Shown here one piece after another: positions 7,447 to 43,442 of a stretch of DNA of 64,000 nt. How positions within the stretch are numbered: position 1 is the stretch's first letter; the number at the start of each line of letters is the position of its first letter. The notes under the pieces were generated by a model. The model saw nothing but the letters and a program-made list of their open reading frames with translations, had not been told where the DNA came from and did not search any database. Position numbers and translations under genes: made by a program. Source of the stretch: Corallococcus coralloides DSM 2259 (lineage in GTDB: Bacteria; Myxococcota; Myxococcia; Myxococcales; Myxococcaceae); the NCBI RefSeq assembly GCF_000255295.1, contig NC_017030.1, positions 6,038,328 to 6,102,327 on the forward strand. The letters are read 5' to 3'.

Positions 7447-7464
7447 AACGAAAGCCCACCGACA

Positions 7465-23602: not shown

Positions 23603-24202
23603 ATGAGTACCCTCCCGAGCATGGCACGAACGGAGAAAGAGAAGATGCTCGCGGGCGAGCTGTACGTCGCCACCGACCCGCAGCTGACGGCCGAGCGGGT
23701 CCGCGCCCGCAGGCTGCTGCGCACCTACAACCAGTCCACCGAGGACGAGCTGACGCTGCGTGAGAGCCTGCTCGCCGAGCTTCTGGGCAAGGTGGGCGCC
23801 GGAACGTGGATCGAGCCGCCCTTCCTCTGCGATTACGGCGAGCACATCCGGCTGGGCGAGCGCGTCTTCATGAACTTCCAGTGCGTCATCCTGGACTGCA
23901 ACCCGGTGACGATTGGCGACGACGTGTCCTTCGGTCCGGGCGTGCAGGTGTACGCGGCCACGCATCCCCTGGACCCGGATGAACGCATCAAGGGTCCTGA
24001 GCTGGGCCGCCCCGTCACCATCGGTTCGAAGGTGTGGATTGGAGGCGGCTCCATCATCTGCCCGGGCGTCACCATCGGCGAGGGCTCCACCATTGGCGCG
24101 GGCAGCGTGGTGACGCGGGACATCCCGCCGTACGTCTTCGCCGCCGGCAATCCCTGTCGCGTCATCCGGAACCTCAGCCCACCGCCTGGTGGGTCTCGGT
24201 GA
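23603..24202 (+). CDS. maa: Maltose/galactoside O-acetyltransferase (left-handed beta-helix hexapeptide family)
   Basis: The N-terminus EKEKMLAGELY, the body GERVFMNFQCVILDCNPVTIGDDVSFGPGVQVYAATHP, and the hexapeptide repeats are Maa/LacA signatures. An alternative start lies at 23621 (MARTEKEK). Confidence 0.85.
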   Translation: MSTLPSMARTEKEKMLAGELYVATDPQLTAERVRARRLLRTYNQSTEDELTLRESLLAELLGKVGAGTWIEPPFLCDYGEHIRLGERVFMNFQCVILDCNPVTIGDDVSFGPGVQVYAATHPLDPDERIKGPELGRPVTIGSKVWIGGGSIICPGVTIGEGSTIGAGSVVTRDIPPYVFAAGNPCRVIRNLSPPPGGSR

Positions 24203-24926: not shown

Positions 24927-25105
24927 GGGACAGGGCCTCGAAGAAGCAGCGGGGATGCCTGTCCCATGAGCACGGCGTGTGCCAGCGCTCGTGCTTCATG
25001 GGGTGAACGCCAAACCCCTGTGTTTCCAGGGCACGTGGGCCTGGCCTCGTCAGCGAAGGCCCTCGCCACTGATGACAGCCGTTGGCGGAGTGATGTCCGG
25101 CGTCA

Positions 25106-26290: not shown

Positions 26291-26423
26291 GCGGCGAAAA
26301 GGTGCACCGGGCAGCAGGACCCGGGCACCGCAGGCTAACCCGCCACGTCTCGCCGCACCGCCGTCCGCGCGCCGCCCGTCACAACCCGGCCGGAGGGCGG
26401 GCGGAGGGCCACGCGCCCGGACT

Positions 26424-27824
<1,401 letters not shown>

Positions 27825-27873
27825 TTACCGCGCGTCTTGGGTCGCCGCGCCATTTCCGTTACAAGCCGCCGCC

Positions 27874-29472
27874 ATGTTCAACGTCATCAACGTCTCCAAG
27901 GCCTATGGGCCCAAGAAGCTGTTCGAGGAGGTCAACGTCGCCTTCTCGCCGGGCCGCCGCTACGGCCTGACCGGTCCGAACGGGGCCGGCAAGTCCACGT
28001 TCATGAAGATCCTCGCGGGAGACGAGGAGCAGGACACGGGCGAGATCATCCGCCCGCGCAAGCTGGGCATCCTGCGCCAGGACCACTTCCGCTATGAGAA
28101 CGACCGCGTCATCGACGTGGTGTTGATGGGCAACCGCCACCTGTGGGCGGCGATGGACGAGAAGAACAAGCTGCTCGCCAAGTCGGACATCACCGAGGAG
28201 GACGGCAACCGGCTGGGTGAGCTGGAAGGCGTCATCGCGGAAGAGGACGGCTATTCGGCGGAGAGCGACGCGGCCACGCTGCTGGCCGGCCTTGGCATCG
28301 AGGAGTCCTTCCACGAAGAGCCCATGCGCCAGCTGACGGGCGGCCTGAAGCTGCGCGTGTTGCTCGCGCAGGCGCTGTTCGGCAAGCCGGAAGGGCTGCT
28401 GCTCGACGAGCCCACGAACAACCTGGATATCGATTCCATCCGCTGGCTGGAGAACTTCCTGCATGTGTACGAGGGCGTGCTGATCACCATCAGCCACGAC
28501 CGGCACTTCCTGAACTCCATCTGCACGCACATCGCGGACATCGATTACGAGACCATCATCCAGTACACGGGTGGTTACGACGACATGGTCCGGCAGAAGT
28601 CGCAGCTGCGCACCCGGGTCGAGTCCGAGACGGCGGAGAAGAAGAAGAAGATCGCCCAGCTGCAGGACTTCGTGGCGCGCTTCCACGCCGGTACGCGCGC
28701 GTCGCAGGTGCAGAGCCGCATCAAGCAGATCGACAAGCTGAAGACGGAGGACCTGAAGCGCTCGAACATCGCGCGGCCGTTCATCCGGTTCGACCAGAAG
28801 GTGGTGAGCGGCCGGCAGACGCTGATGTTCGAGGGGCTGAAGAAGTCCTTCGACGGGCAGCAGGTCATCAAGCCGTTCACGGGCCTGGTCTGCAAGGGCG
28901 AGCGCATCTGCGTGATTGGCCGCAACGCCGTGGGTAAGTCCACGCTGGTGAAGATGCTGGCGGGGCAGCTGGAGCCGGACGCGGGCACCATCACCTGGGG
29001 CCACCAGGCGACGGTGGGCTACCTGCCGCAGGACCACCACGGCGTCATCCACAAGGGCACGACGTGCTTCGGCTACCTCCGGGAGATCAGCGAGAAGCTG
29101 ACGAACGAGGAGATTTCCGGCGTGTTGGGCCGGATGCTCTTCTCGGGTGAGGAGCGGATGAAGGCGACGGACACGCTCTCCGGCGGTGAGACGGTGCGCG
29201 TGCTGTTGTCCAAGCTGATGATCACGCAGGACAACGTGCTGATCCTCGACGAGCCGACGAACCACCTGGACCTGGAGTCCATCGCGGCGCTGGCGGAAGG
29301 CCTGTCGAAGTTCGAGGGAACGGTCATCTGCGTGACGCACGACCAGGAGCTCATCTCCGAGGTCGCGACCCGCATCTGGAGCCTGGAGGCGGGCAAGGAC
29401 GTGCTCGACTTCAACGGCCCCTACTCCGAGTTCATGGAGAAGCACGCGGACGCGGCGCTCAAGCGTCGGTAG
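27874..29472 (+). CDS. ABC-F family ATPase (tandem ABC domains, no TMD; ribosome-associated/translation-factor-type)
   Basis: ATG at 27874 (MFNVINVSKAYG) within ORF 27412..29472. There are two Walker A motifs (GPNGAGKST, GRNAVGKST) and two signature motifs (LTGGLKLR, LSGGETVR). The Lys-rich interdomain linker is typical of ABC-F. Confidence 0.9.
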   Translation: MFNVINVSKAYGPKKLFEEVNVAFSPGRRYGLTGPNGAGKSTFMKILAGDEEQDTGEIIRPRKLGILRQDHFRYENDRVIDVVLMGNRHLWAAMDEKNKLLAKSDITEEDGNRLGELEGVIAEEDGYSAESDAATLLAGLGIEESFHEEPMRQLTGGLKLRVLLAQALFGKPEGLLLDEPTNNLDIDSIRWLENFLHVYEGVLITISHDRHFLNSICTHIADIDYETIIQYTGGYDDMVRQKSQLRTRVESETAEKKKKIAQLQDFVARFHAGTRASQVQSRIKQIDKLKTEDLKRSNIARPFIRFDQKVVSGRQTLMFEGLKKSFDGQQVIKPFTGLVCKGERICVIGRNAVGKSTLVKMLAGQLEPDAGTITWGHQATVGYLPQDHHGVIHKGTTCFGYLREISEKLTNEEISGVLGRMLFSGEERMKATDTLSGGETVRVLLSKLMITQDNVLILDEPTNHLDLESIAALAEGLSKFEGTVICVTHDQELISEVATRIWSLEAGKDVLDFNGPYSEFMEKHADAALKRR

Positions 29473-29498
29473 TCCGAACCGCAATTCCAGACAGTGCG

Positions 29499-29545
29499 AA
29501 CGCCGCCCGTTTCCGGTCCTCCGGAAGCGAGGCGGCGTTTTCGTG
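29499..29545 (+). terminator. Rho-independent terminator downstream of the ABC-F gene
   Basis: A 9-bp GC-rich stem (aacgccgcc ... ggcggcgtt) encloses an inner hairpin and is followed by TTTTCG. Confidence 0.5.
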
Positions 29546-29608
29546 CGCGTGTCCATCCCTCTCCCGGGTGATGTCACTCCCTTGACCGGGTCGGCAAGAC
29601 TCACGCTA

Positions 29609-30826
29609 AACGACCGCGCATGAATCCCGATCGGCTCGGAGGGTAGGCAGGCGCTGGGAGCGGCAGGAAAGGGGCAGGAGCTCGCGCCGTTCGGCCTTGT
29701 GTGCGCAAGAACCGGATGAAGAAGCGAGTCCTGCCTCAGGGAAGGCAACAACTACGCCTGCGATGTCCTGACCGCAGGCGGCTGATTCGCTGGGGAGAGA
29801 GGACTGGCTGCCCGCTCACCTTGCGGCGGTGCCTGGCGGTAGCGAAGGTGGCCAGTGGTCAGTCACGGACGCAAGCCGCGCGGCAACTGCTGTGCGCCAC
29901 GTCCACGGTGGTGTCCGCGGTTCAGCGCTTCCAGGAATCAGGCCGAGAAGGCCTCTTGGACGGGCGTGCTCAAAGTGGGCAGCGCAAAGTGGATGAGCGA
30001 TTCCGGCAGACGTTGTGCCGGGTGCTGGAAGGCACGCCGCGGCAGTCCGGTTGGCGGCGCACGACGTGGACGCGCGAGTTGCTGGTCCGTGAGGTGGAGA
30101 GGCGAGGCTGGGTACGCGTCTCGCCCGCGACGATGGGACGCGCCTTGGCCTCGGTGGGAGCCCAGAGAAGGCGTCCGCGTCCCGTGGTGTGCTGCCCCTG
30201 GCCGGAGCGCAGACGCCGTCGGCGCCTCTGGCAGCTGAAATGCCGTGCGGCCTTCGCCCGGCCCGAGGAGCCCGTGCTTTTCGAGGATGAGATGGACGTG
30301 CACCTCAACCCGAAAATCGGTCCCGACTGGACGTTGCCTGGACAGCGCAGAGAGGTCGTCACTCCGGGCAACAACCAGAAGCGTTTCGTGGCGGGAGCGC
30401 TGGATGCGCGCACGGCCCGGGTGACTTGGGTGCAGGGGGAGAAGAAGACGAGTGCTCTCTTCATTGACCTGGTGCGCGCCGTGGACGCCGCCTATCCCAG
30501 GGCGAAGCGTCTGCATTTCATCCTCGACAATGCCGCCACCCACTCCAGCAAGAAGACGCAGAAGGCGCTGGAGGCACTGGGCGAGCGGCTGGTGCTGCAC
30601 TTCCTTCCGCCATACTGCCCGGAGGGCAACCGCATCGAACGCCTGTGGTGGGACGTGCACGCCAACGTCACCCGTAACCATCGCTGCAAGAAAATGGAGG
30701 CGCTCATGACCGAGGTGGACGCCTACCTCGACGCGCGGAACACCCAGAAGTCCGCCAGCCCCTTGCTGCGCGTCGCCTCCGCTCGACGCGCAGCTTGAGA
30801 CCATTCGAGAATTACGATCGGTCGTT
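29609..30826 (+). mobile_element. IS630/Tc1-mariner family insertion sequence, apparently intact (1218 bp), flanked by TA target-site duplications at 29607-29608 and 30827-30828
   Basis: Terminal inverted repeats are present: AACGACCG at the left end, CGGTCGTT at the right end. It is inserted just downstream of the ABC-F terminator and encodes a single DDE transposase ORF. Confidence 0.8.
29701..30798 (+). CDS. IS630-family DDE transposase
   Basis: There is an N-terminal HTH region (...LTLRRCLAVAKVASGQSRTQAARQLLCATSTVVSAVQRFQESGREGLLD). The DDE_3 catalytic residues sit in LFEDEMDVHLNP, HFILDNAATH and PPYCPEGNRIERLW. Confidence 0.85.
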   Translation: MRKNRMKKRVLPQGRQQLRLRCPDRRRLIRWGERTGCPLTLRRCLAVAKVASGQSRTQAARQLLCATSTVVSAVQRFQESGREGLLDGRAQSGQRKVDERFRQTLCRVLEGTPRQSGWRRTTWTRELLVREVERRGWVRVSPATMGRALASVGAQRRRPRPVVCCPWPERRRRRRLWQLKCRAAFARPEEPVLFEDEMDVHLNPKIGPDWTLPGQRREVVTPGNNQKRFVAGALDARTARVTWVQGEKKTSALFIDLVRAVDAAYPRAKRLHFILDNAATHSSKKTQKALEALGERLVLHFLPPYCPEGNRIERLWWDVHANVTRNHRCKKMEALMTEVDAYLDARNTQKSASPLLRVASARRAA

Positions 30827-31021
30827 TAGGCCGTCAGTCCATGGTGGCCTGGCTGGGGGTGAGCGATGGTTCTGTCCATGATGTGGGGGGGTGTTGGCGT
30901 CGTTGTTCGCGGCCTTGTGGTTCCGGTCCCGTTCTCGCATTCACCCGTTGCAGGAACGGCTCAAGCCCATCGTGAACATTGACGCCGAGAAGAAACGAAT
31001 CACTGAAGAGATCGCACAATG

Positions 31022-34000
31022 TTACCGAAAAAGCCGTATGCGCTCTTGCAGAGTAAGAGCGATCGGAATGTTACGTGCCGCGAGCTCGGCAGCTAATTCC
31101 ACTAACGCCTCGCGCGCTTTGGCATCATTCGCAAGGGCGGGAGCATTGCGTGTCAAGGCCGTATCGAGCAACTCAACAAGAGCATCTCCATTTTCATCGC
31201 GCCACCACTGGCGCCCCGTCTTGCTGACACGCAATGCGGCCGATATCCACCTCAATCCGTCAAGACGCAAGAATGTCCCTACTTCGGACGACAGGAAGCG
31301 ACAGAAGCGTCTCACACTCTCCTCGCTGTGGCCGAGATGTGCTTGTGCCCAGCGGTCGTAAAGATCACGCATGTCCGGCACTGATTTAGACGGCAGGTGC
31401 TTTAGCAAGTCCTCATTACCAAAGCCGAGCAGATCACCCAACAAGCGCTCACCATAGGGCCAGTATAGGTCGCGCGCTCCCCACTTCGCGTCCAGTGCAT
31501 ATTGCACGAGTGAACGCCACAATGGCCGGAACCGCTCAACATCGCAGCCCTGATTGAGCAAGAGAAATAGATTACGGGTAAAGTACTGAAGCGCGTAATG
31601 CGCCTTGGGGCCGCACGAAAGAACCGCTTCCCAAACGGGGCGGGCTTCGGCCGGTGACAGTGAAACTGAGAGCGAACCGAGCTTGGCTAAAAGATCGTAA
31701 CCAATCTGCTGACTAGGGGGAGAGCACTCGCCATCCGCCTCCCCCTGGGCTTGCATATATTCAACTTCACAGTCCCAAAGCTGCAAAACGAGTTCGCGAT
31801 CTTTAAGCAAATCGCCAGTGCCTAGTCCTTTCAGCAGCCAATTGAACAGCAGGCCGAGGAAATTTATGTCTAGGCCGATCGAGTGTCGAGCGTCGAATTC
31901 TCGACCTCTGCATTGCTGTACTGTCAACCCGTTGGCACGAGCCCATCTAGCCCTCTCAAGACGCTGATAGCCCATCAAGACGCGGCCGATTTTGACACCA
32001 GTCGAGACGGCCCCCTCTTGGCGAAGAGGGAAGCGCCTAATCCTCGCCAGCCAACCGTGCCAAATAGGCCCAATTCTCTCTGAATCATCATAATTCGGCG
32101 CTAGCATTACTAGAGCAGACCAAAACAACCCCACTTGGAGAAATCGCCACCAAGTGGAGCCCAACATTTCGCGCTTAGCGTAAGCAATCGACACAAGCGT
32201 GACCACAACCCTGCTATCACCGCAAGTGAGAAGGCGAAGCACAAGAGCTTCCCATTCGGCGCTCTCGTCAAATTTAGTCCAGAGATGCATGACAGCGAAG
32301 GCAGTAAACGGGAGCGAGTCCTCTCCCCCGCTGATTCGTGCAGTACGAATAGCGACCGCGGTTTCTCCCACCTCCAGCGCCGACGCCCGAATGATCTCCA
32401 CCAAACGCTGCCTCTTCGTTGGCTCCCTACCCAACCAAGAAGCGCCGCAAACAACGAGCGTTGTCGCCAGAGCCAACATGCTCTTCATCTTAACTGATGA
32501 CTCGACCGTGCTGCTGCGATTCGACGACTCCAGAAGCTCATAAAACCTTCCTGCAACGTCGTCGGAAAGCGATTGCTGAGCCCGCAACAACTGCTCACAT
32601 TGACTTGGGATTATGAGCTGCTGAATTTCAGCCTCATGGGACTTCTGCCATGCTTTCGCCTCTTGACGAAGGCTCTCGGGATAGACCAGCGCAAAAACCT
32701 CTGCACCTGTCTCGCTATCGATGACGCGATGATAGTTCGCTCGATCGAGAGCCGCCCACATGAACCTGAGTTCCAGTGACTGTTTAGGATCATTGGGGAT
32801 CACCCATGTCGGAATTGCGAACTGCAGTTTTTCCGCGACGACATCGTCCTCCTTGAGCAAGTTGGCCACGATATCAACGAACCTCTGCCGGCGGTGCGCC
32901 GCCAGTGTCCAACTTTTTGCGAACTCAAACATCACTTCACTGCTGTTCGCCCAATGCCAGCCAATGAATCTACTACCAACCTGCTCAACACACTGAGCAT
33001 CCCAATAGAACATCAACGGACTTGTAAGCAGGGGCGCGAGTGGTCCCGGCAAAAGCGCAGGTTGGTACTTGCCAAGATTGACGAGCAAGCCGAGGAACGC
33101 AACTGACGCGCCCTCCTTTAAAATACCCTCAACCCAGTGCGCAATGTCTGCGTTTTTGTCGACCTGCAGCGTCAACCATCTTTCGAGCGCATCAAGAGCG
33201 CAATGTAAATTCCCATCACGAATAGAATTCTCCTGCGTCCAACCAAACAGCAGAGGGCCGCCAATGAACTCTTTCTCAATGCCATTTCCCATCTCAAGCT
33301 TCACGGTCGGAACCGAGCGATTCGTCCCAAACCGAGCGCTATCTACCCATCGATCCGTGCAAAAATTCACAAGCTTGATTATCGCCTGCAAAGCCTCGCG
33401 CGGCGCAATTTGGAGAAAGAGAAAGAACGGCGTCTTCCAGAACGCAGTCGGATAGCCGTCCCTTGCAGCCTCAAGCCCTAATTTTATCTTCCACCGTCCG
33501 GCTCCGTATTCCTCGCAAGGCTGATCTTTAATAATGAGCGCCAGCAAAACTTCTGCTGCCACTGTCGGCCGCGTGCGCATTAACGGCCCCAGACTGCTAC
33601 CGCCTAGGCATGCATTTCGAAAATCGTGATCGATCGGGCGCATTGCTCCAAGCGGCCACGGTTCCAATTCGTGTCGGCCTGGAACTACAAGCTGTGGTAA
33701 GTCTCTGCGCCGCGATTCAGTCGCTCGCATCCGGGTGTCGTTTTTGAGACGCGCTGCACGCTCTTCAGCTTGTCTCTTACGAGCGACTGCGACGCGTATG
33801 AGGACGTCCTTTGAAATGGGACGTCGGCCAGACATCTCCAATGCCCAGCACGACACTTCATCAGGTAGATCAGGCGCACCTGCGAGTGGTGCGGCGAAAA
33901 ACACCGGATCCTGGCTCAGAAACATGACTCCTTGCTCTTTGAGAACCTGCACAGTTCTAGCCATTGCTATTGCGAGTTCGGCAAACTCTCGCCGGAACGG

Positions 34001-36295
34001 CGTCGGATTGCCGTTCGCGAGCATCGGCGGCGTGCCGGACAGCCACGTCTCGGCCAACTTCGCCAGAGCAGGCAAAAGCATGGATGTGATGCGGTCGCGG
34101 TGGGTCGCGAGAAAGCGTACTATGGGCGGCCATCTCGCAGCGATCACCGACCGGTATCGAGTCTCTATGTGTAAGCCAAGTGTCGGATTGTCGCTCAAGG
34201 GCGGTAAAACACGTGGCACCGTACCAATGTGATGAAAGCGGGTAAGAAGCCGAGTCATTCGCTTTCCGTTCTCGGCTAAAAGTAGATCGACGCGCTCGTA
34301 AAGAAAGCGCTCAGCTTCCGGGTCGAGGCAAAGGGCGTCGAGCAACATGTCGGAAGCAAGGGGCATTTCTGTTTCTTCCGCTGCAGCAAACGCCTCATCC
34401 CACGCTGTTGCCGTTCCTGCGGGTTGGCGCAGCAGGAACTGTCCGAGCATGCGCAGTGCTGCACTCCATAATGGGTTAGACGCCAGAGCGGACCAGCGAG
34501 CCGTGTTACGGGCGATCTGCTTCAGAAACTGAAACCGCGCCCAGTCGGCTGCGAGATCGTGCTCGAACTCAAGGTGATTAGTCCGCTCGTTGAGACGAAG
34601 TGGAAGGTGGGCTGGACCTTGTTGAAATGTCCTAGCATCACCTGGCCGAAGGTCCGTGAGAGCAAAACTTCGCTCGAAGGATGCCTCGCGCTCTGCAAGG
34701 CGCATCAGAAGCTCTTGGATTTCAGCTCGGCCGTCGGTCCAGAAGCGCCAAAGCCGGTCTGCGACTGCCGCATGGGACGCCGGAGCTACTGTTCCAGCTG
34801 TAAGCGCCGCTCTAGCCTGGATGACCCAACCCAGCGTCTTCAGGTTCGCTAAGACGGCGACTGTTTCTGGATGGCCAACCAGCCAACTGAGCGCTGGCGT
34901 GGCGCTGAGCGCAGCCTCCACGTCGGAACTCTTGAGCAACCCCAGCTCAATAAGGACCGAAGGTTGGGCGCCAAGTATTGTCTCTGCTCGTTCAGCCCAG
35001 CTTTGGGTCTGACTTATCACAATCAGCCGCCAAGCGGCTTGGGGGGAATTATCTGAAGCTAAGAGTTCATGAACAAACCGCCTAACAATGCTCGTTTCAC
35101 TCGGCTCTATCCGCTCCACTGAATCAAGGACCAACACATTTCGAGCGTTCGCGCTCGCCTTCAGGACATCAAGCAGTGCGTGCTGAAGTGGAAGACTTGA
35201 TCGTCGCACAACACTAAGCGCTGCCTGTACTTGATTCGGACCAAGCCACACCTGAGTCCATGCCGCGAAGCGCGTGTCCAGGACTGTTTTCACCAGCGCC
35301 GATTTGCCCGCGCCTGAGTCGCCGAAGACAACAGAAATCGAGTTCTCGGCAAGCGCCGCCTCCAGCTTTCCAGCTTCATCGTGCCGGGCGATACTCACAC
35401 CGTTCGGCAACGATGCCTCGATGTGTGCTTTGTAGTCCGTGGTCAGGTTGGCGAGTGTTGTCCAATCCCCCGAGCCCGCGCCATCCGATGGTCCGCTCGA
35501 CGCCGGAACCGGCCCCGACTCCAGGAAGGCCCGTGTGTAAGCGGCCGCGACATCGCATGCATAGGGCCGCCAGTTCTCCACGGTGGCGCTGCCCTTCTCC
35601 GCGTCCGCCAGATCGGACACCCCCCGAATCATCAAAAACCTGGGGCGCGAGCCGGTCTGGTGCAGAGCGAGCGCAGTCCCTCCTCCTTCCATTTCCACGC
35701 CTATGAGCTTGTCCCAAACCTCTTGGTTCTGCCGCAGCGTCTCCCCATCGGCCAGCACGTCGCCGCCAGAGAGGATGATACCCGAGTGACGCAGTGGCCT
35801 ACCTGGCACTGGTCGAACTTCTTGCGTCCGGCTTTCCCAGCCCCCAGGCAGGTTAATGGCTGCATCGAGTAAGGTAGCGTCCACGCGATAAACCTCCCAT
35901 CGGGTGATACGCCTATCCTCAAGCCGCTTGCCTACGGTGTAGTCCGCTATCTGGTTGGCGACGAGGACATCCCCCAGGCCTGCGACCGACCTTCGCCCTC
36001 CTGCAATGCCCACAAAGAGCACGTGCCGCGGGCCCCACCGGTGCACGACCGCCATCGCCTTTGCGGCGGCCTGGATCGGCCCCATTCCAGCTAGACTGGT
36101 CACCAGGACACGGTAGCGTGCGCCATCCGAACGCATGGTCGGAACAAAAGCTTCGTAGTAAGTGTGCGGATCATCATCCTCTCTATCCAGCCTGCTGTAC
36201 CCGGGCAGATGGCGGAGCATCGCATCCCGTTCCTGCTCAAGTGCCGCGATAATGACGAAATCCACCGGACGTGAAACCTGCGCTGCCTGATGCAT
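31022..36295 (-). CDS. 1757-aa STAND-type P-loop NTPase with N-terminal purine nucleoside phosphorylase / MTA-SAH nucleosidase-like (PNP_UDP_1) domain and a ~1200-aa helical C-terminal region; Avs/NLR-like candidate antiphage defence protein
   Basis: The N-terminal ~270 aa match the Pfs/MTAN pattern: VDFVIIAALEQERDAM, SLAGMGPIQAAAKAMAVV...VLFVGIAGG, GDVLVANQIADY, VEMEGGGTA, RGVSDLAD. Then come Walker A VVFGDSGAGKSALV and Walker B NVLVLDSVE. GC is about 56% against ~70% for the flanks. ATG at 36293-36295, TAA stop at 31022-31024. Confidence 0.8.
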   Translation of the reverse strand: MHQAAQVSRPVDFVIIAALEQERDAMLRHLPGYSRLDREDDDPHTYYEAFVPTMRSDGARYRVLVTSLAGMGPIQAAAKAMAVVHRWGPRHVLFVGIAGGRRSVAGLGDVLVANQIADYTVGKRLEDRRITRWEVYRVDATLLDAAINLPGGWESRTQEVRPVPGRPLRHSGIILSGGDVLADGETLRQNQEVWDKLIGVEMEGGGTALALHQTGSRPRFLMIRGVSDLADAEKGSATVENWRPYACDVAAAYTRAFLESGPVPASSGPSDGAGSGDWTTLANLTTDYKAHIEASLPNGVSIARHDEAGKLEAALAENSISVVFGDSGAGKSALVKTVLDTRFAAWTQVWLGPNQVQAALSVVRRSSLPLQHALLDVLKASANARNVLVLDSVERIEPSETSIVRRFVHELLASDNSPQAAWRLIVISQTQSWAERAETILGAQPSVLIELGLLKSSDVEAALSATPALSWLVGHPETVAVLANLKTLGWVIQARAALTAGTVAPASHAAVADRLWRFWTDGRAEIQELLMRLAEREASFERSFALTDLRPGDARTFQQGPAHLPLRLNERTNHLEFEHDLAADWARFQFLKQIARNTARWSALASNPLWSAALRMLGQFLLRQPAGTATAWDEAFAAAEETEMPLASDMLLDALCLDPEAERFLYERVDLLLAENGKRMTRLLTRFHHIGTVPRVLPPLSDNPTLGLHIETRYRSVIAARWPPIVRFLATHRDRITSMLLPALAKLAETWLSGTPPMLANGNPTPFRREFAELAIAMARTVQVLKEQGVMFLSQDPVFFAAPLAGAPDLPDEVSCWALEMSGRRPISKDVLIRVAVARKRQAEERAARLKNDTRMRATESRRRDLPQLVVPGRHELEPWPLGAMRPIDHDFRNACLGGSSLGPLMRTRPTVAAEVLLALIIKDQPCEEYGAGRWKIKLGLEAARDGYPTAFWKTPFFLFLQIAPREALQAIIKLVNFCTDRWVDSARFGTNRSVPTVKLEMGNGIEKEFIGGPLLFGWTQENSIRDGNLHCALDALERWLTLQVDKNADIAHWVEGILKEGASVAFLGLLVNLGKYQPALLPGPLAPLLTSPLMFYWDAQCVEQVGSRFIGWHWANSSEVMFEFAKSWTLAAHRRQRFVDIVANLLKEDDVVAEKLQFAIPTWVIPNDPKQSLELRFMWAALDRANYHRVIDSETGAEVFALVYPESLRQEAKAWQKSHEAEIQQLIIPSQCEQLLRAQQSLSDDVAGRFYELLESSNRSSTVESSVKMKSMLALATTLVVCGASWLGREPTKRQRLVEIIRASALEVGETAVAIRTARISGGEDSLPFTAFAVMHLWTKFDESAEWEALVLRLLTCGDSRVVVTLVSIAYAKREMLGSTWWRFLQVGLFWSALVMLAPNYDDSERIGPIWHGWLARIRRFPLRQEGAVSTGVKIGRVLMGYQRLERARWARANGLTVQQCRGREFDARHSIGLDINFLGLLFNWLLKGLGTGDLLKDRELVLQLWDCEVEYMQAQGEADGECSPPSQQIGYDLLAKLGSLSVSLSPAEARPVWEAVLSCGPKAHYALQYFTRNLFLLLNQGCDVERFRPLWRSLVQYALDAKWGARDLYWPYGERLLGDLLGFGNEDLLKHLPSKSVPDMRDLYDRWAQAHLGHSEESVRRFCRFLSSEVGTFLRLDGLRWISAALRVSKTGRQWWRDENGDALVELLDTALTRNAPALANDAKAREALVELAAELAARNIPIALTLQERIRLFR

Positions 36296-36397
36296 CCCGA
36301 GTCACCTCTCCCCCCTGTTGTTCTACCACTGAAGGCACTGGTTGCTTCCAGCCTTTCGCCCGGCTTGGTCTACGTCAAGCTCCACCATGCGTACCTA

Positions 36398-36835
36398 AAC
36401 GACCGATCGTAGTTCTCGAACGGATTCAAGCTGCACATCGAGCAGGTGCGGCGCGCAGCAAGGGGCTGGCTGTCTTCTGCGAGTTGCGCGTGTCGAGGTA
36501 GGCGTCCACCTCGGCCAGGAGCGCCTCCATCTTCTTGCAGCGATGGTTGCGGGTGACGTTGGCATGCGCGTGCCACCAGACGCGCTCACTGCGGTTGCCC
36601 TCGGGGCAGTACGGCGGCAGGAAGTGCAGCACCAGCCGCCCCCAATTTCTTCCAGCGCCTTCTGCGTCTTCATACTGCAGTGGGTCACGGCATTATCGAG
36701 GATGAAGTGCAGACGCTTGACTTGGGGGTTGGCGGCGTCGACGGCGCGCACCAAGTCGATGAAGAGCGCACTCATCTTCTTCTCGCCCTGCACCCACGTC
36801 ATTTCCAAGAGCAGATCGACCCACTTCGACCGCAA
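36398..36835 (-). mobile_element. Truncated, frameshifted IS630-family copy (3' ~440 bp only), inverted relative to the intact copy and ~85% identical at protein level
   Basis: The terminal IR plus TA sit at 36396-36405 (cTAaacgaccgatcgtagttctcgaa), matching the right end of the element at 30800-30828. Two frames (36426..36632 and 36395..36835) encode the transposase C-terminus (LHFLPPYCPEGNR, HFILDNAVTH). Similarity to the transposase is lost upstream of about 36800. Confidence 0.75.
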
Positions 36836-37120
36836 GGTCTACCGGTAGCCCAACCTTGTTGAGCGCCGCATCCGCTCAGGTCAAGTACTCTCGGTGGATG
36901 GCTACGCGCTACGACAAGCGGACATCACACATCCTATCCTTCGTCCCGCTTATTGCGGCCCGTCTCTGGCTCTGCTTTGCCTACACGACCGAGCTGGAAG
37001 CGCTGCGCCATCATGGTCCATTTCTCCACATTTCGCTGGACACCGCAAAATGGACTTGGTCTCTTGCCTTGTGCAACTTCCTTGCGATGGCCGAACTCAT
37101 ACTTAGACTGAACGCCACTT

Positions 37121-37459
37121 ATGCCTATCCAGTGGAAACCTCAACAACGCAAGCGCATTGAAAAGATACTCAACGACCATCCAATCGACAGTGGCGAATG
37201 CGGCGAAGCGGCCGAGAAGATCCTACCAATAGCTCAGGTGCTCGATCCTGGCTCACATAGAATAAAAATCACACCAAAGGGCCATTACAGATACGTCTGC
37301 CCCAAAATCCCCCTCACTGAACCTTGGTTTAACCATACGGCAACAGCAGTCACCCTCCACTATGTCGATGTTCTGACGGGCGCCAAAGGCACAGAGAAAT
37401 CAGCCTACTGGGAAGAGCACTGGAAGCATCCGGAATGCCTTGAGTTCGAGAAGTCATGA
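37121..37459 (+). CDS. Hypothetical small protein (112 aa), low-GC, first gene of a two-gene module
   Basis: ATG at 37121. It overlaps the next gene by 4 nt (ATGA). About 50% GC. The spacing IDSGECGEAAE ... WFNHTATAVTLHYVD might indicate a papain-like Cys/His pair; this is speculative. Confidence 0.5.
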   Translation: MPIQWKPQQRKRIEKILNDHPIDSGECGEAAEKILPIAQVLDPGSHRIKITPKGHYRYVCPKIPLTEPWFNHTATAVTLHYVDVLTGAKGTEKSAYWEEHWKHPECLEFEKS

Positions 37460-38547
37460 GCACTCTCAAAGAAGCGGTCCTCTCCTACATAGACGAACAG
37501 CTCAATTCAATCCTTGCCGCCCCAGGCATGTGGGGCTCCGGAGAGAGCGTTGAGTTTCAGTTCATTCAACTCCTTGAGTTTCGTTCAGTCATACTCAGGC
37601 CTGAGTTGGAAAAAACGAATCCCCGGTCCGTCCTTGATGATTATCAAAAATTCCTAGGGGAGGCATTTCCAGGATCGCATCCCGCCCCGCTCTTTCGACT
37701 GGTCGCAAAGCACCGACGAGAACAAGATTTCACCAGCCTGCTTGAGCGATTCAGTGTTCGACAAAAACAAGTCCTATCCAGACACATCGAGAATCAGCAG
37801 CACGACATAATCATAAAGCTAAATCTATCGAAATCATATCACACCCCCCGCGCCTCGACGCTGAGCTCGTATTATGAGATATTTCATCGAGTCCTTCGAG
37901 CAGTCTCACGCAGAAGAGGCACTCGCGGACTGGCTAGCCACGACATTGAGGAGGCCATCGACTTCACCTTGCCCGATGTCATCATACAACAGGCCAATGG
38001 CGCGCCTGCAAGCATCACCATGCCGCTTGACCAGTTAGAGTCGGCAGAGCGCGAAGATGTCAGTCGTGGCATAAGCAATCTTGTAGCGGTTAGCGAATGG
38101 GCGGCAGACCCCGATGGCTCTGTCGAATCGCTTGTCAACTCAATTCCACATGAAGAGTATCCAGAGCGCATTGCGGCCCAGGCACTCCGCCTTATCCCTG
38201 GTGAGGATTTGGCCGTTCAGACTGTTGAGCTGAGTGGGACCCTTATCAGGCGCCCTAAGCCGGTCGTTCTTATGCCGTTTTATGGCGAACGAATGGTCGA
38301 GGTTGTCAGAACGAGACGAAAGGGACGCAAGTTCAATGAGTTTGGCACAATTCGAGCGGTTGACATTGATCAACTTTCAATGCGAATTAAGACAAAAAAT
38401 CGCACATACAAATGTTGGCTCAAAGACCGAACATTGCTTGAACGCGCCAAAAGGGCTCTTGGGCGGAGCGCCCAAATCGTTGGGACGATCTACAACACGC
38501 CAGGCAGTCCTGTGGTTGTTGACGTCAAAGACATAGATATTCACTGA
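37456..38547 (+). CDS. Hypothetical protein (363 aa), low-GC, second gene of the two-gene module
   Basis: ATG at 37456, translationally coupled to the upstream gene. No recognisable domain. Composition is AT-rich relative to the host. Confidence 0.55.
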   Translation: MSTLKEAVLSYIDEQLNSILAAPGMWGSGESVEFQFIQLLEFRSVILRPELEKTNPRSVLDDYQKFLGEAFPGSHPAPLFRLVAKHRREQDFTSLLERFSVRQKQVLSRHIENQQHDIIIKLNLSKSYHTPRASTLSSYYEIFHRVLRAVSRRRGTRGLASHDIEEAIDFTLPDVIIQQANGAPASITMPLDQLESAEREDVSRGISNLVAVSEWAADPDGSVESLVNSIPHEEYPERIAAQALRLIPGEDLAVQTVELSGTLIRRPKPVVLMPFYGERMVEVVRTRRKGRKFNEFGTIRAVDIDQLSMRIKTKNRTYKCWLKDRTLLERAKRALGRSAQIVGTIYNTPGSPVVVDVKDIDIH

Positions 38548-38559
38548 CACCCAATTCCG

Positions 38560-39030
38560 TTGACGATTGAGCTGCCCCTTCTGGTGCTGCGTCCCGTTCA
38601 CGTCGGCGCTAGCCCCATCCCAGCGGATCAGTTGGTCGGAACCTGGGGGCAGCGAGCACATCCTCGGGCCTCAAGTCCGAGGCAAGCTGACGATGAGGCG
38701 GGAAAGGGCATAACTGGCGAGCACGCATCGCAGGCTTCAGTGTTCCGGTCCGGATCGACGGCCAGAAACCGTCGGTTGTCGTCTCCGAGCAACAGGGTAG
38801 GCTTCAGCCCACGCTTTCGGAGAACGGCCAAAGCATCACGGGGCATTGAATCCGGCCCCACATACTCATGAGCAGGATGAAGTTCGCCGCCACGGTGAGC
38901 TGCGCTCGCTTCAGCCAAGTATCTGGCGCGGCAACGTTGCTCATATGGATGCCCAGTTTTCGCTGTATCTTGTCCCCCAGAAGCCAGCCTGATAGCTCCG
39001 TACCGGTGTTCATCCGCAACCCGGAGCGGA
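38560..39030 (+). pseudogene. Decayed 5' fragment (start codon plus ~470 nt) of a serine-hydrolase gene paralogous to 41691..43442
   Basis: ORF 38560..38871 begins MTIELPLLVLRPVHVGASPIPADQLVGTWGQ, against MTRYRFLGLLLALLPLHVGAVPMPADPLVGIWGS in the intact gene. Nucleotide similarity of ~70-75% with frameshifts continues to about 39026, including gttcatccgcaacccggagcggaacttc. Confidence 0.6.
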
Positions 39031-39136
39031 ACTTCTCACCCATTCGGCACAAGGTGGCCACCGAGCTGAACGCGGCTGGTGACATAGAAGCCGGACGCGA
39101 CGGTGCGCAAGGTGTCAGTGGGTATGATGCAGGGCC

Positions 39137-40585
39137 ATGTATCCGAGACGCCGTCTTCTGGCCCGTGGGCAGTGGTTGTTCGACCTCAGACCGCATCGGC
39201 TCATCGTCTTCCACGGAGCCGAAGGCGTGCGCCGGGAGGTCAGTGGAGACGTTCCGAATCCTCCGCCCGCGCCCGTGGTGCTCGCCGCGCTCGATGAGTC
39301 ACCGGACGTTTGCGTGGGGAGCGGGGATCGGCGTGTCTTCTCTGTGGGGGCCGGCGCGAGCGCTCCCGTTCAGCCCTTTCCGAGGAAGTGCTTCGATCTC
39401 ATCACCGATGGGGATCGGCTCATCGGAACGATGGTGGACGGCGCCCTCAAGCTGACCACCCTCTTCACGACCGATGGGTCCGGGCAGCGATGGGAACCCA
39501 TGACCTTGCCCAAGCCCGTGAGCGTCAGTCACGGGTACGGATATTCCGAGGGGCGCCCCCACCGGCAGTCCCCCGATGGGGCATTCCTCGACACGAGCCC
39601 CTTTGGCACCACCGTCGTGGAGAAGGGCCGGGGCCGCGTCTACGTGCTCCGTGCGGGGGCGGCTCAGCCGGAGGGCGCGCTTCAGGTGGAGCCGGGCCAT
39701 GAGCAGGACATCTGGCGGGCCCAGGCCACTCCCCACGGTGTGCTTCTCCTGCTCGTCATCAATTACCGGCAGACGGCGCTCCTCCACTTCGCGCTCAATG
39801 GCACCCTGCTCGGCTCCCTACCGAAGCAGGATGGTGATGACGATGAGGGTGAGGAACTGACCTGGGGCGGTGCCGGGGTGTGCGTCCTCGACGCGGACCG
39901 GGCGCTCCTCTTCGTCCAGGACAAGATCCTCCTGGTGTCCCTGCCCGGGCTCCAGGTGCTGGAGACGCTCGCGGGGGAGTGGCCCAGCTTCGTGTCCGTG
40001 ACGCCCGCGGGGCCTCACCGGTGGTGGGTGGGCCCCGAGGACAGTGACGCGCTCTTCCTGCTCACCGCCGAGCCCGGACACCCCTTGCGCCTCCACGCCT
40101 CACACCGTCCGGTGAGCCCAGGCGCGCCGCTCATGCACGTGGGCTACAAGACGCCCACGCTCCACTGGGCCGAGTACAGCTCGGCGCCGCTGACCGTGTC
40201 CGCGCCCGTGACCGAAACGTGGCGTGCGGTGGTGCGCAATGACGGGACCACGTGTGAGGCCGTGCGGATCCGCGTGTCCGGGGTGCTCGTCGGCGCTCGC
40301 GTGGTGGACGTGAGCGTGCGGTATCGCGGCCAGCCGCTCCCGATGGTGGAGGAGCACCGCGTGAACCTCGTGGGGGTTACCGCCGGACTCGAGGGAGGAG
40401 CCACCGCGGAGCTGGAGGTGACCTTCAAGCCCCGGAGCGAGGGCTCGGGAGCGCTGACCATCACCGTCGAGCCATGCTCCTGGCAGTCGCAGGGCAAAGA
40501 GTGGCAGTGGGACAAAGAGGAGTCTCGCGTCCTCGCGGTGACGGGCCATCCCGCATCCGCCCAGTTCCTGCTCACGGTGGAGTAG
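39137..40585 (+). CDS. Hypothetical protein (482 aa), high-GC
   Basis: It has coherent GC3 and a mixed composition. The start is uncertain. No assignable domain. Confidence 0.5.
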   Translation: MYPRRRLLARGQWLFDLRPHRLIVFHGAEGVRREVSGDVPNPPPAPVVLAALDESPDVCVGSGDRRVFSVGAGASAPVQPFPRKCFDLITDGDRLIGTMVDGALKLTTLFTTDGSGQRWEPMTLPKPVSVSHGYGYSEGRPHRQSPDGAFLDTSPFGTTVVEKGRGRVYVLRAGAAQPEGALQVEPGHEQDIWRAQATPHGVLLLLVINYRQTALLHFALNGTLLGSLPKQDGDDDEGEELTWGGAGVCVLDADRALLFVQDKILLVSLPGLQVLETLAGEWPSFVSVTPAGPHRWWVGPEDSDALFLLTAEPGHPLRLHASHRPVSPGAPLMHVGYKTPTLHWAEYSSAPLTVSAPVTETWRAVVRNDGTTCEAVRIRVSGVLVGARVVDVSVRYRGQPLPMVEEHRVNLVGVTAGLEGGATAELEVTFKPRSEGSGALTITVEPCSWQSQGKEWQWDKEESRVLAVTGHPASAQFLLTVE

Positions 40586-41669
40586 TGCGAACCTTCCCGG
40601 GCTCGGGCGCGGCGCTCATCTTCCAGATCAGAGCGCCCCCTCCGACGAGGACCCCCAGCCCCACTGCCGCCGCGAGGATCCAGCCTCGTCCCACGCGGGG
40701 CCGTGCCTGGTTCTCCGGGCCGTCTGGAGCCGGGGCGACGACGGTCGGGTCGTCGCTCGGAGAGACCTGCTGGACGAGCTGGGCTACCTGCCGCGAGGTC
40801 ACCGGCTCTCCCACCGAGCGGATGAAATCTTCCAGGTCCTTCCGGAACGTGTGGCAGTCCGGGTAGCGCTGGTCCCGATCCTTCGCGAGCGCCCGGGCGA
40901 GGATGGCTCGAAGGGCATCGGGCAGGTCCGGCCGGTGCTGCTCGGCGGGCACCAGGGGCTCGTATGCGACGGCCCGAAACAAGTTGAATTCGGACACGGA
41001 CTCAAAAGGTCTGTGCGTGGTGAGCATTTCGTAGAGCACCAGACCGAGTGAGTAGACGTCCACCCGCAGGTCCACCGACACGCCCATGATCTCCTCGGGC
41101 GCCATGTACCTGTACTTGCTCATGTCGGGGTAGTGGTACTCGGGAGCCCACCGTACCCGGAAGTAGTCGATGCCGAAGTCCACCACCTTGGCCGTCCCCT
41201 GGCGAGACAGGAGGATGTTGTACGGCCGGATGCAGCGGTGGATGAGCCGCAGCGGCTCGTTCGTCTTGGGCTCGGTGAGGTCGTGGGCATGGGCGAGCCC
41301 CTCGCAGGCTTGCGAGATGATGCGTGCGCACAGGGTCGCTGGGAGGGTCATCCGCTGGGTCGTCACGTGCTTGATCACCCTGCACAGACTGGGCCCATCG
41401 ATGTGCTCCCTGGCGAGGAAGTACGTGCCGTCCGTCTCACCGACGTCAACGACCTTCGCGAGGTGCGGGTGCGTGAGCCGGGCGGCATCCCTCGCCGTGT
41501 CGAGGAACATCTCCGGAAAGTTCACGTGCTCGGCCATGTCCGAGCGGAGGCACTGGAGCACCAGCGTCTTCTCGATGCCCTGAGGGTCGGTGGCCTTGGC
41601 CAGAGAATCTTCGATGATGCCTTCGACCAGCGGGCGGATGCGCTGGTATTTGCCGACTTGGGATGTCAC
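40572..41669 (-). CDS. Protein-kinase-like protein, predicted pseudokinase, with C-terminal TM anchor
   Basis: The kinase fold is recognisable (DFGIDYF, MAPEEIMG, HRPDLPDALRAILARAL), but the catalytic loop reads HRCIRPYN rather than HRD. The Gly-rich loop and the VAIK lysine are absent. The GTG start near 41669 is uncertain because it lies only ~21 nt from the divergent gene. Confidence 0.65.
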   Translation of the reverse strand: MTSQVGKYQRIRPLVEGIIEDSLAKATDPQGIEKTLVLQCLRSDMAEHVNFPEMFLDTARDAARLTHPHLAKVVDVGETDGTYFLAREHIDGPSLCRVIKHVTTQRMTLPATLCARIISQACEGLAHAHDLTEPKTNEPLRLIHRCIRPYNILLSRQGTAKVVDFGIDYFRVRWAPEYHYPDMSKYRYMAPEEIMGVSVDLRVDVYSLGLVLYEMLTTHRPFESVSEFNLFRAVAYEPLVPAEQHRPDLPDALRAILARALAKDRDQRYPDCHTFRKDLEDFIRSVGEPVTSRQVAQLVQQVSPSDDPTVVAPAPDGPENQARPRVGRGWILAAAVGLGVLVGGGALIWKMSAAPEPGKVRTTPP

Positions 41670-41690
41670 GGAGCGTATGAATAGCAGACC

Positions 41691-43442
41691 ATGACCCGGT
41701 ATCGCTTCCTTGGGCTTCTGCTGGCGCTGCTTCCTCTCCATGTCGGCGCTGTCCCCATGCCAGCGGATCCGTTGGTGGGCATCTGGGGCAGTGAGCGCAT
41801 CCTCGGGCCTCAAGTTCGGGGCGAATTGACACTGCTTCGGAACGGGGACATCTGGCGCGCGCGCATCGCGGGCTTCGATGTTCCTGCCCGGGTCGAGGGC
41901 CGGAAGGTGTCCGTCGTCTTCCCAGGAGGCGAACTCCGAGCGACGTTGGCGGAGAGCGGCCAGAGCATCACCGGCCACTGGATCCAGCCGCGCGTGCTCA
42001 TGAGCGGCATGAAGTTCGCCAGTCCGGTAGAGCTGCGCGCTCTTCAGCCGGGTGTGTGGCGAGGCACCGTGGCACCGCTGGAGGACCGGTTCTCGCTGTA
42101 TCTCGTCATCCAGAAACAGCCTGACGGCTCGGTGACGGCGTTCATCCGCAACCCGGAGCGGAACTTCGGCAACCGGATGCTGTTCCGCGTGGAGCTCCAG
42201 GACCGCACGGTCCGGCTCACGTCCACCAAGGGCAACAACCCGATTGAAGGCACGTTCGACGCGCAGTCCGGACGGCTGTCCCTCCCCTACCCTCCCTTCG
42301 ACACGACGTTCGACTTCACTCGCCGGGATCGTTCGCAGGCCGTGGGCCTCTACTCCCGCACGCCTGCTCCTGTTCCCTACGCCTACCAGAAGCCCATCGC
42401 GGAGGACGACGGCTGGACCACGGCCTCCGCCGCCGACGTCGGCATGGATGTCCAACCGCTCCAGCAGCTCGTGCAGCGCATCCTCGACCAGGAGCCGAGC
42501 CCGGAATCAGTGCCCGCCATCCAGGGTCTGCTCATCGCGCGCCATGGGAAGCTCATCGTTGAAGAGTACTTCCAGGGCTTCGACAAGGAGCGTCCCCACG
42601 ACCTGCGGTCCTCCTCCAAGTCCTACGCGTCCCTGCTGATTGGCATTGCCCTGGACCAGGGTGCCCCCTTCACCGTGGACACGCCCGTCGCCTCACTCTT
42701 CCCTGAGTACAAGGGCAAGCTCTCCAACCTGGATGCTCGCAAGCGCAAGCTCACCGTCGCGCACCTGATGACCATGGCGACGGGCCTGGCTTGTGACGAT
42801 GACGAACCGGATTCACCCGGCAACGAGGACCGGCTCGAGGACTCTGTACCGGATTGGTACAAGTACACGCTGGACCTCCCCATGGTCCGCGCTCCCGGCG
42901 GCGGGAAGGCTGTGTACTGCTCCGCGAACATCAACCTGCTGGGCGGCGTCCTCCGCAACACCACCCGCACGTGGATCCCCGAGTTCTTTACCCAGAACGT
43001 CGCCACGCCCCTCCAGATGCGCGGCTATCACCTGGACCTCATGCCCGACGGCGAGCAGTACCTGGGCGGCGGCATCTACATGCGCCCCCGGGATGCCCTG
43101 AAGCTCGGGCAGCTCTACCTCTCGGGTGGCACCTGGAACGGGAAGCGCGTGGTCAGCCAGCGCTGGGTGGAACGCTCCGTCGCGAACCAGGCGACGATGC
43201 CGGACGGACGGACCTATGGCTACACGTGGTGGCGCCATGAGCTTCGCGTCGGTGACCGTGTGTATTCGCAGTACGAGGCCAGCGGCAATGGTGGCCAGCT
43301 CGTGATGGTCGTCCCGGAGCTGGACCTCGTCGTGCTGTTCACCGCGGGCAACTACAACCACGTCGCCCTCTGGCGGAAGTTCCGAGAGGAACTCCTGCCC
43401 CGGTACATCATGGCCGCGGTCACTGCTCCCCCGCGGCCCTGA
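41691..43442 (+). CDS. Serine hydrolase, beta-lactamase/transpeptidase fold (class C/PBP-like) with ~250-aa N-terminal extension
   Basis: There is a signal peptide MTRYRFLGLLLALLPLHVGA. The S-x-x-K active-site motif SSSKSY and downstream class-C-like motifs are present. Confidence 0.8.
   Translation: MTRYRFLGLLLALLPLHVGAVPMPADPLVGIWGSERILGPQVRGELTLLRNGDIWRARIAGFDVPARVEGRKVSVVFPGGELRATLAESGQSITGHWIQPRVLMSGMKFASPVELRALQPGVWRGTVAPLEDRFSLYLVIQKQPDGSVTAFIRNPERNFGNRMLFRVELQDRTVRLTSTKGNNPIEGTFDAQSGRLSLPYPPFDTTFDFTRRDRSQAVGLYSRTPAPVPYAYQKPIAEDDGWTTASAADVGMDVQPLQQLVQRILDQEPSPESVPAIQGLLIARHGKLIVEEYFQGFDKERPHDLRSSSKSYASLLIGIALDQGAPFTVDTPVASLFPEYKGKLSNLDARKRKLTVAHLMTMATGLACDDDEPDSPGNEDRLEDSVPDWYKYTLDLPMVRAPGGGKAVYCSANINLLGGVLRNTTRTWIPEFFTQNVATPLQMRGYHLDLMPDGEQYLGGGIYMRPRDALKLGQLYLSGGTWNGKRVVSQRWVERSVANQATMPDGRTYGYTWWRHELRVGDRVYSQYEASGNGGQLVMVVPELDLVVLFTAGNYNHVALWRKFREELLPRYIMAAVTAPPRP

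Follow-up and report, generated by a model that had tools for sequence, protein, structure and literature searches.

A likely hypervariable cargo slot in Corallococcus chromosomes and a candidate Avs4-like antiviral gene with a nucleosidase effector

We analysed a 64,000-nt stretch of the Corallococcus coralloides DSM 2259 chromosome (the window, to which coordinates refer unless a locus is named) that contains a low-GC island between an ABC-F ATPase gene and a gene encoding a 482-aa protein. Our main conclusion, to which we assign a probability of roughly 0.7, is that these two conserved genes enclose a hypervariable cargo slot, that the slot turns over by replacement of its contents, and that an antiviral Avs4-like module is among its cargo. 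This module would be the giant stand-alone gene COCOR_04801, which shares the island with a two-gene cassette, insertion sequence (IS) pieces and remnants of other genes. The low-GC DNA is foreign to the C. coralloides DSM 2259 chromosome, and the island combines at least two separate acquisitions with relics. Defence hotspots or islands between conserved core genes have been described in E. coli, Pseudomonas and Vibrio.

RESULTS

Conserved flanks and species-specific cargo

The conserved left flank is the ABC-F ATPase gene (27412-29472, plus strand; two ABC_tran domains and ABC_tran_Xtn). This flank is 92-95% identical at the nucleotide level to those of C. exercitus, C. aberystwythensis and C. 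carmarthensis, and the similarity extends up to 29540-29607. On the right, the conserved flank covers 39111-40585 (plus strand), with the boundary of homology lying about 26 nt before the ATG of the 482-aa gene (39137-40585). A scan of genomes with the product of this gene returned seven loci, which form the synteny set; all seven genomes align only from GTCAGTGGGTATGATGCAGGGCCATGTA on (around position 39111), giving one sharp right boundary. The 482-aa protein is 78-86% identical in relatives, and both flanks are common to four other Corallococcus species at 86-95% nucleotide identity.

The slot is fully spanned in three relatives; the C. interemptor locus reaches only ~2 kb upstream. In the three spanned species the slot measures 2.4, 4.8 and 8.4 kb, versus 9.5 kb here, and the cargo is wholly different. 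C. exercitus carries a full PD-Lambda-1 homologue (DUF4041 and T5orf172; E = 1.6e-153 in PADLOC) together with a DUF3800/PDC-M04A gene, and PD-Lambda-1, which consists of DUF4041 and T5orf172, is a validated defence system (Vassallo et al. 2022, PMC9519451). In C. carmarthensis the slot holds a Kelch/Ig protein and an AAA_21-methyltransferase protein with AriA/PtuA-like ATPase matches. The C. aberystwythensis slot contains pieces similar to IS630 and IS5, a number of unknown genes and a second copy (537 bp, 95% identity) of the ABC-F 3′ end. The two copies of this 3′ end, at 1042-1574 and 6679-7215 of the C. aberystwythensis locus (L002), bracket about 5 kb of cargo. Because the duplicated end brackets the cargo in this way, the arrangement suggests that cargo enters the slot along with pieces of the donor flanks. 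An earlier note on this DNA, made from the sequence alone, had expected related genomes to lack the island and to place the ABC-F gene next to a gene on its right. The cargo was indeed absent from them, but an empty slot was found in 0/3 spanned relatives and the ABC-F gene was never directly beside the 39137 gene.

Sliding windows of GC content and tetranucleotide usage bore out the fall in GC across ~7.7 kb that had been reported in the note. GC content is 0.68-0.73 in the window flanks, 0.52-0.59 at 30750-35250, 0.61-0.64 at 35250-36750 and 0.51-0.54 at 36750-38750, and it returns to flank level around 39250, so that the low-GC block as a whole has 0.51-0.63 over about 30.8-39.1 kb. By segment, and with a whole-window mean of 0.682, the main body of the giant gene has 0.558, its PNP part 0.63 and the cassette 0.51. 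The GC content at third codon positions (GC3) is 0.53-0.69 in the cargo genes versus 0.84-0.93 in the flanking host genes (ABC-F and 482-aa). The tetranucleotide distance to the rest of the window was 36-55 in every 2-kb window starting at 30001-38001, which deviates by >3 standard deviations from a background of 20.6 +/- 4.2. The composition-based interval was itself correct; the variable region proper begins at 29607, the target site of IS630, and runs to 39110. The foreign composition, the conservation of both flanks and the lack of this cargo in related genomes agree with the view of the note that the cargo was horizontally acquired. Its proposal of a defence island likewise gains support from PD-Lambda-1 in the C. 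exercitus slot, the AriA/PtuA-like ATPase in C. carmarthensis and the Avs4-like giant gene here.

Foreign composition and IS debris would also be found in a decayed prophage or integrative element, and the 363-aa protein of the cassette resembles uncharacterised phage proteins in Foldseek searches. The block, however, lacks an integrase, tRNA genes, att-like direct repeats and structural genes of phages, no member of the cassette family turned up in the viral contigs scanned, and three related species hold unrelated cargo between identical boundaries. We consider an origin of this kind, as opposed to a recombination hotspot, highly improbable; it was rejected after searches for tRNAs, Rfam families, integrases, phage domains and att-like direct repeats found none. 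Promoter and terminator scans of the region gave signals at or below chance.

Domain structure and relatives of the giant gene

COCOR_04801 (31022-36295, minus strand, 1757 aa; 100% match to the annotated gene) is the giant NTPase gene that the earlier note had placed inside the island. It encodes a PNP/MTAN-like nucleosidase, a STAND P-loop NTPase and a long C-terminal region. The nucleosidase is the presumed effector and matches PNP_UDP_1 at aa 14-258 (35522-36256, minus strand; PF01048, E = 6.7e-16). It has the motifs AALEQE (aa 17-22), GIAGG (96-100), VEMEGG (200-205) and RGVSD (224-228), of which VEMEG and RGVSD (D228) align with their counterparts in MTA/SAH nucleosidases of solved structure. 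The domain is followed by a Gly/Ser-rich linker (aa 264-276). The PADLOC run suggested in the note returned PDC-M60C (E = 5.5e-25) and the CBASS PN-superfamily effector (E = 9.7e-18) for this domain, as well as Avs4 matches in the same gene. The domain lies below the cutoff of the housekeeping MTAN equivalog in NCBIfam (68 vs 169 bits), and it is most similar to PNP-STAND proteins of myxobacteria (52-63% identity, confined to the domain).

The STAND P-loop NTPase core (35003-35398, minus strand) contains Walker A GDSGAGKS (K331) and Walker B LVLDSVE (D391, E394). In an alignment of 17 family members, residues G325, S327, G328, G330, K331, S332, D391 and E394 do not vary. Pfam nSTAND1 matches the protein weakly, and the NTPase core aligns with EcAvs4 residues 208-337. 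The remaining ~1325 aa (31025-35002, minus strand) form the presumed sensor and are 33-50% identical in the homologues P0002-P0017.

The original GenBank coding sequence of COCOR_04801 (1732 aa) starts 25 codons too late. The omitted part (36221-36295, minus strand) encodes the first strand of the PNP domain with its conserved ALEQE motif, and homologues align from VDFVIIAALEQERD; RefSeq WP_083892326.1 already has the 1757-aa start. A chimeric origin of the gene, judged from composition alone, was set aside as weakly supported: GC3 is 0.69 in the PNP part vs 0.58 in the rest (p about 1e-3), but the best change point falls near codon 350, not at the domain junction around codon 276.

Homologues P0002-P0017 have the same overall length and match residues ~280-1757 with 33-50% identity, and they carry other heads on this ~1470-aa body. 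P0017 has an HNH nuclease head that matches CBASS endonuclease effector models, and P0002-P0016 have a ~280-aa PDC-M54A-like domain; the head plus NTPase of P0002, the commonest type, matches the first 423 positions of PDC-M54A (E = 6e-14). When the family profile was compared with the PDB, EcAvs4 (8dgf) was the one significant relative (E = 3e-13), with three colinear stretches corresponding to the NTPase, the middle and the C-terminus. The latter two are profile positions 923-1098 and 1530-1738, which are colinear with EcAvs4 761-937 and 1370-1574. Avs4 models also hit the giant protein itself (NCBIfam, E = 7e-12; PADLOC, a partial match, E = 5.9e-8). The protein is a distant relative of Avs4 and not an Avs4 orthologue.

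The homologues are solitary genes in unrelated neighbourhoods, patchy in distribution and compositionally foreign. The HNH-headed member in Parasphingorhabdus marina (L012, 2946-11785) adjoins a block of serine recombinase, DUF2924 and DUF3489 genes, and because of this adjoining recombinase block it probably sits on an integrative element.

A probable Avs-type sensor with a swapped effector

PNP domains at Avs N-termini have been published, and immune PNP domains are ATP/dATP nucleosidases (Rousset et al. 2023, bioRxiv 10.1101/2023.01.24.525353). Cleavage of ATP and dATP was shown for Cap17 from CBASS and for DtcC from Detocs (bioRxiv 10.1101/2023.01.24.525353), and Avs4 has been described as portal-sensing. 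By its domain content and family relations, the giant protein is best described as an Avs-type single-gene sensor with a swapped effector, and we infer for it an antiviral role together with the trigger and substrate given here. It would be an Avs4-like STAND NTPase that has a PNP/MTAN-type nucleosidase where the N-terminal nuclease is usually found. The long C-terminal region would bind a conserved phage protein, the STAND core would then oligomerise in an NTP-dependent manner, and the clustered PNP domains would cleave adenine nucleotides, most likely ATP or dATP as Cap17 and DtcC do. The loss of adenine nucleotides would deplete the energy of the cell and abort the infection.

Alternatively, the giant PNP-STAND protein may be not antiviral but one of numerous STAND/NLR-like regulators in myxobacteria, acting for example in developmental or kin-related cell death or in nucleoside-metabolite signalling, and the slot may be a general accessory-gene hotspot. 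This explanation seems to us unlikely, although a number of observations favour it or otherwise weigh against a defence slot. Myxobacteria have many PNP-STAND proteins with varied C-termini (pentapeptide, TPR, WD40, SAVED and TIR), the C. carmarthensis cargo includes its Kelch/Ig surface protein, and the window contains a probable toxin-immunity pair at another site. In Hyalangium, Pyxidicoccus and M. qinghaiensis the 482-aa gene is preceded, as far as checked, by unrelated genes without defence character, and for this reason the slot is known only in Corallococcus, where it is documented on three fully spanned genomes. The similarity of the giant protein to Avs4 amounts to 43-51 bits (43.4 bits in a direct test of NCBIfam NF041815) against a model cutoff of 1500, and most of its C-terminal region matched nothing known in profile and PDB searches. 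On the other hand, the chassis is related to Avs4 only, its heads swap between nuclease and nucleosidase as they do in antiviral STANDs, and the family members are patchy, solitary and compositionally foreign. In addition, the sister species C. exercitus has PD-Lambda-1 in the same slot. We consider the giant protein to be probably antiviral.

Relic of a previous occupant

A relic of a PD-Lambda-1-like gene (DUF4041/T5orf172 type) lies at 30830-31018 on the plus strand. It consists of the upstream region and the first ~50 codons, ends at the stop codon of the giant gene, and is 72% identical to positions 7356-7544 of the C. exercitus locus (L001), where the PD-Lambda-1 homologue starts. Homology stops at ~31018, and the open reading frame (ORF) 30891-31361 is the relic frame running into the antisense strand of the giant gene. 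An earlier PD-Lambda-1-like occupant would have been overwritten here, leaving ~190 bp. The junction of native and foreign DNA is at 31019-31024, at most 3 nt from the TAA stop codon of the giant gene; the gene came without a 3′ untranslated region or terminator.

IS630 and IS5-like elements

An intact IS630-family element occupies 29606-30829 (plus strand, 1224 bp), with terminal inverted repeats of ~25 bp (29606-29630 and 30805-30829), TA at 29607-8 and 30827-8, and a transposase ORF (29701-30798) that matches DDE_3 (E = 5.5e-27) and HTH_29/HTH_32/HTH_23. The element is exactly missing in C. exercitus: window 24171-29607 aligns with L001 2013-7353 and window 30828-31018 with L001 7356-7544, so that window positions 29607 and 30828 correspond to L001 7353 and 7356. 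The target in the window lineage reads GACTCACGC-TA-GGCCGTC, with TA on each side of the element. Because C. exercitus has the uninterrupted target site, the intact copy is a classical simple insertion at TA, and it would be later than and independent of the other events. The earlier note was right that this IS630 is intact and has a TA duplication; its placement at the left edge of the island needs correction, as the element inserted into native sequence just left of the interval.

The second, inverted copy that the note had listed at 36398-36835 is present at 36394-36835 (minus strand). What remains of it is the 3′ ~408 nt, with a weak match to DDE_3; the terminal repeat at 36395 faces the start of the giant gene. 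Over positions 36394-36801 it shares 84-87% identity with the final 408 nt of the intact element (85.8% by blastn over IS positions 817-1224). Two inverted IS630 copies that bracket the giant gene, with right-end repeats at 30829 and 36395 both facing it, could be taken for a composite transposon that carried the gene into the site. This scenario has extremely little probability. The intact copy has its own TA duplication and an uninterrupted target in C. exercitus, and native sequence, the PD-Lambda-1-like relic, continues inside it, as after a lone insertion into resident DNA. The two copies are just ~86% identical and so are different elements, the second one lacks the 5′ two-thirds of the transposase and its outer end, and no giant-gene homologue at the loci examined is flanked by IS630. 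The empty-site alignment and the 86% identity ruled the composite transposon out, and the description of the island as bounded by IS630 elements does not hold either, one element being a separate insertion and the other an internal fragment.

Next to the truncated copy, 36856-36990 (plus strand) encodes a peptide ending in WMATRYDKRTSHILSFVPLIAARLWL. In tblastn this peptide matched under annotated plasmid IS5-family transposases (E = 1e-3 to 2e-2), and a Pfam search of it found no match. On this weak evidence the segment is probably a C-terminal remnant of an IS5-family transposase, and ORF 36856-37161 is unlikely to be a gene. Both this piece and the truncated IS630 would be scars of earlier events.

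A decayed gene fragment at the right edge

The note had described the right edge of the island as a decayed fragment of a neighbouring housekeeping-type gene. A decayed piece of a neighbouring gene is present (38578-39035, plus strand); the term housekeeping-type is loose, since the parent gene at 41691-43442 encodes a beta-lactamase-fold hydrolase. The serine-hydrolase fragment is frameshifted, corresponds to codons ~10-159 of that gene, and is 75% identical to 41718-42167 by blastn; its tblastx matches are split over several frames. Its identity to the orthologues of four Corallococcus species is 71-77%, whereas true orthologues are 86-88% identical. This difference implies that the fragment is not a recent local copy; it would be either a donor-flank relic or an old duplicate. 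No such fragment was found at the corresponding position in any of the four species.

A two-gene cassette

The two-gene AT-rich module recognised in the earlier note consists of a gene for a 112-aa protein (37121-37459, plus strand) and COCOR_04803, which encodes a 363-aa protein (37456-38547, plus strand). The genes overlap by ATGA and are translationally coupled. The 363-aa protein has an N-terminal ~110-aa helical module, a middle alpha/beta region and a C-terminal five-stranded beta barrel whose strands 3 and 4 are separated by a helix, as in an OB fold. Neither protein matched Pfam (E up to 10), NCBIfam, PADLOC or PHROGs, Pfam searches with 50 distant members of the cassette family and PDB profile searches also found nothing, and a word-index search for homologues of the 112-aa protein returned itself alone. 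In an alignment of 14 sequences of the 112-aa protein, Cys27, His72 and Asp83 do not vary and are spaced 45 and 11 residues apart. Its single-sequence AlphaFold model is poor (pLDDT 53) and places C27 where a predicted helix begins, D83 on a predicted strand and H72 in a low-confidence segment. We regard the protein as a putative Cys-His-Asp hydrolase.

The cassette pair with its ATGA overlap is kept at >12 unrelated sites, and it recurs in Archangium violaceum, C. terminator, a Polyangiaceae metagenome-assembled genome (in which the small gene is apparently frameshifted) and several metagenome contigs. A homologue of the small gene lies directly upstream of its partner in every locus that covers the upstream sequence. 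The context differs each time and is mostly housekeeping, and in three high-GC myxobacterial hosts the cassette has a GC content of 0.52-0.57 vs 0.68 in the flanks. It is never beside a giant-gene homologue and for that reason is a self-contained, independent mobile unit. A functional link between the giant gene and the cassette was ruled out, as homologues of each were found without the other. The metagenome scan for the cassette gave 12 loci, mostly short and too few for an analysis of neighbourhood enrichment, and the scan of viral contigs found no cassette relatives.

Foldseek comparison of the whole 363-aa chain showed a resemblance to a few phage proteins that are uncharacterised (E = 7e-9 to 5e-7, with low TM-score). 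One structural match is named DUF6575, which is listed among validated E. coli defence domains (PMC9519451); the sequence gave no confirmation of this lead. A profile search with the 363-aa protein collected 692 clusters, many of which share the N-terminal ~110 aa alone. This part (37456-37785) is a separate, widespread module that occurs with other C-termini, one of them Peptidase_M23, and metagenome loci with the module (L022-L025 and L027) have a small Cys-His-Asp gene directly upstream.

Our best guess is that the cassette may be a toxin/antitoxin-like or abortive-infection pair. In a more specific version, which we regard as doubtful, it would be an undescribed two-gene immune or abortive-infection system: the Cys-His-Asp hydrolase would be held in check by the N-terminal module of its partner, the variable C-terminus of the partner would sense phage nucleic acid or protein, and the low-GC unit would be spreading across Myxococcota and other soil bacteria. 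Somewhat more plausible, but still less likely than not, is that the pair is an orphan toxin-immunity or plain addiction module outside phage defence that is in the slot by chance. The location of the cassette mostly between housekeeping genes fits this explanation, as do the absence of defence-model matches, the tight coupling typical of toxin-antitoxin pairs, and the combination of a constant N-terminal module with variable C-termini in the partner. It is at odds with the lack of a secretion signal or a known toxin or immunity domain, and with two defence-rich contexts, namely the window and a locus with an MmeI-type restriction-modification gene (L015). The two explanations also overlap, because toxin-antitoxin-like pairs often act in abortive infection.

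Three properties of the cassette add to the points that speak against a defence slot: it matches no defence model in PADLOC, the hydrolase fold of the 112-aa protein has no HMM or PDB profile match or confident structural support, and defence-type genes are near the cassette only here and at 1/8 other annotated loci. The extension of the defence proposal to the two-gene module is left in doubt, since the module travels by itself and is found mostly in housekeeping surroundings.

Other genes in the window

A second low-GC patch is located at 15432-17472 (GC about 0.59). In it, a lipoprotein-like ORF with a probable true start near MIDGRLLWGLAALLCLSCASG precedes a gene for a 'type VI immunity for VRR-NUC' protein of the TsiV family (PF11876, E = 8.5e-42), and these genes probably form a nuclease toxin/immunity pair. 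To the right of the island, the 627-aa minus-strand ORF 40572-42455 is over-extended, with an upstream part that runs antisense to the start of gene 41691-43442 (plus strand), which encodes the beta-lactamase-fold hydrolase. The C-terminal part of this ORF is Ser/Thr kinase-like by motifs read by eye.

DISCUSSION

These results point to a slot in Corallococcus whose boundaries are fixed and whose cargo is replaceable; phage defence in this group has received little study. Scars of what would be successive replacements can be seen in it: the PD-Lambda-1-like relic, the duplicates of flanking sequence and the IS fragments. The giant gene would be a natural example of effector swapping on an Avs4-like chassis, with a myxobacterial-type PNP in the place of the nuclease, and COCOR_04801 is a candidate for ATP-depleting immunity against myxophages. 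The cassette, which is compact, widely scattered and without annotation in the libraries searched, is the sole potentially new element. Everything identifiable belongs to known kinds, namely IS630, PD-Lambda-1, an Avs-type STAND bearing a PNP effector, and a probable defence hotspot.

The intact IS630 copy shows all the traits of its family that were tested (a transposase with DDE_3 and HTH domains, inverted repeats and a TA duplication) and no difference from it, whereas the second copy, a different member, is present only as a 3′ fragment. PD-Lambda-1 is represented by the full-length homologue in the C. exercitus slot, whereas the window retains just the non-functional relic of its first ~190 bp. 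The Cys-His-Asp spacing of the 112-aa protein would be compatible with a minimal member of the papain/NlpC-P60-like cysteine hydrolases.

In its fixed boundaries and its species-specific cargo, which includes defence-type genes and mobile-element scars, the slot resembles known defence hotspots. It differs from them in that the comparison comprises three fully spanned relatives within one myxobacterial genus, and in that part of the cargo is not defence-like (the Kelch/Ig protein and the unannotated cassette).

Like Avs4 (AVAST type 4; EcAvs4, PDB 8DGF), the giant protein is encoded by one large gene and joins an N-terminal effector and a P-loop STAND core to an extended C-terminal region, with a similar overall length, and in both cases family members swap their N-terminal effectors. 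Here, however, the effector is a PNP nucleosidase and not a nuclease, and most of the ~1300-aa C-terminal region is unalignable, so that the trigger need not be a portal protein. With the immune PNP domains of Cap17 and DtcC the protein shares the PNP_UDP_1 fold and the nucleosidase motifs, including the aspartate of VSD. In contrast to these domains, its PNP is fused to an Avs4-like chassis outside CBASS or Detocs, and the nearest sequence relatives of this PNP are myxobacterial PNP-STAND proteins. The heads of the family also match PDC-M54A and PDC-M60C, two putative candidate systems in PADLOC; these matches are partial, and the rest of each protein is unmatched.

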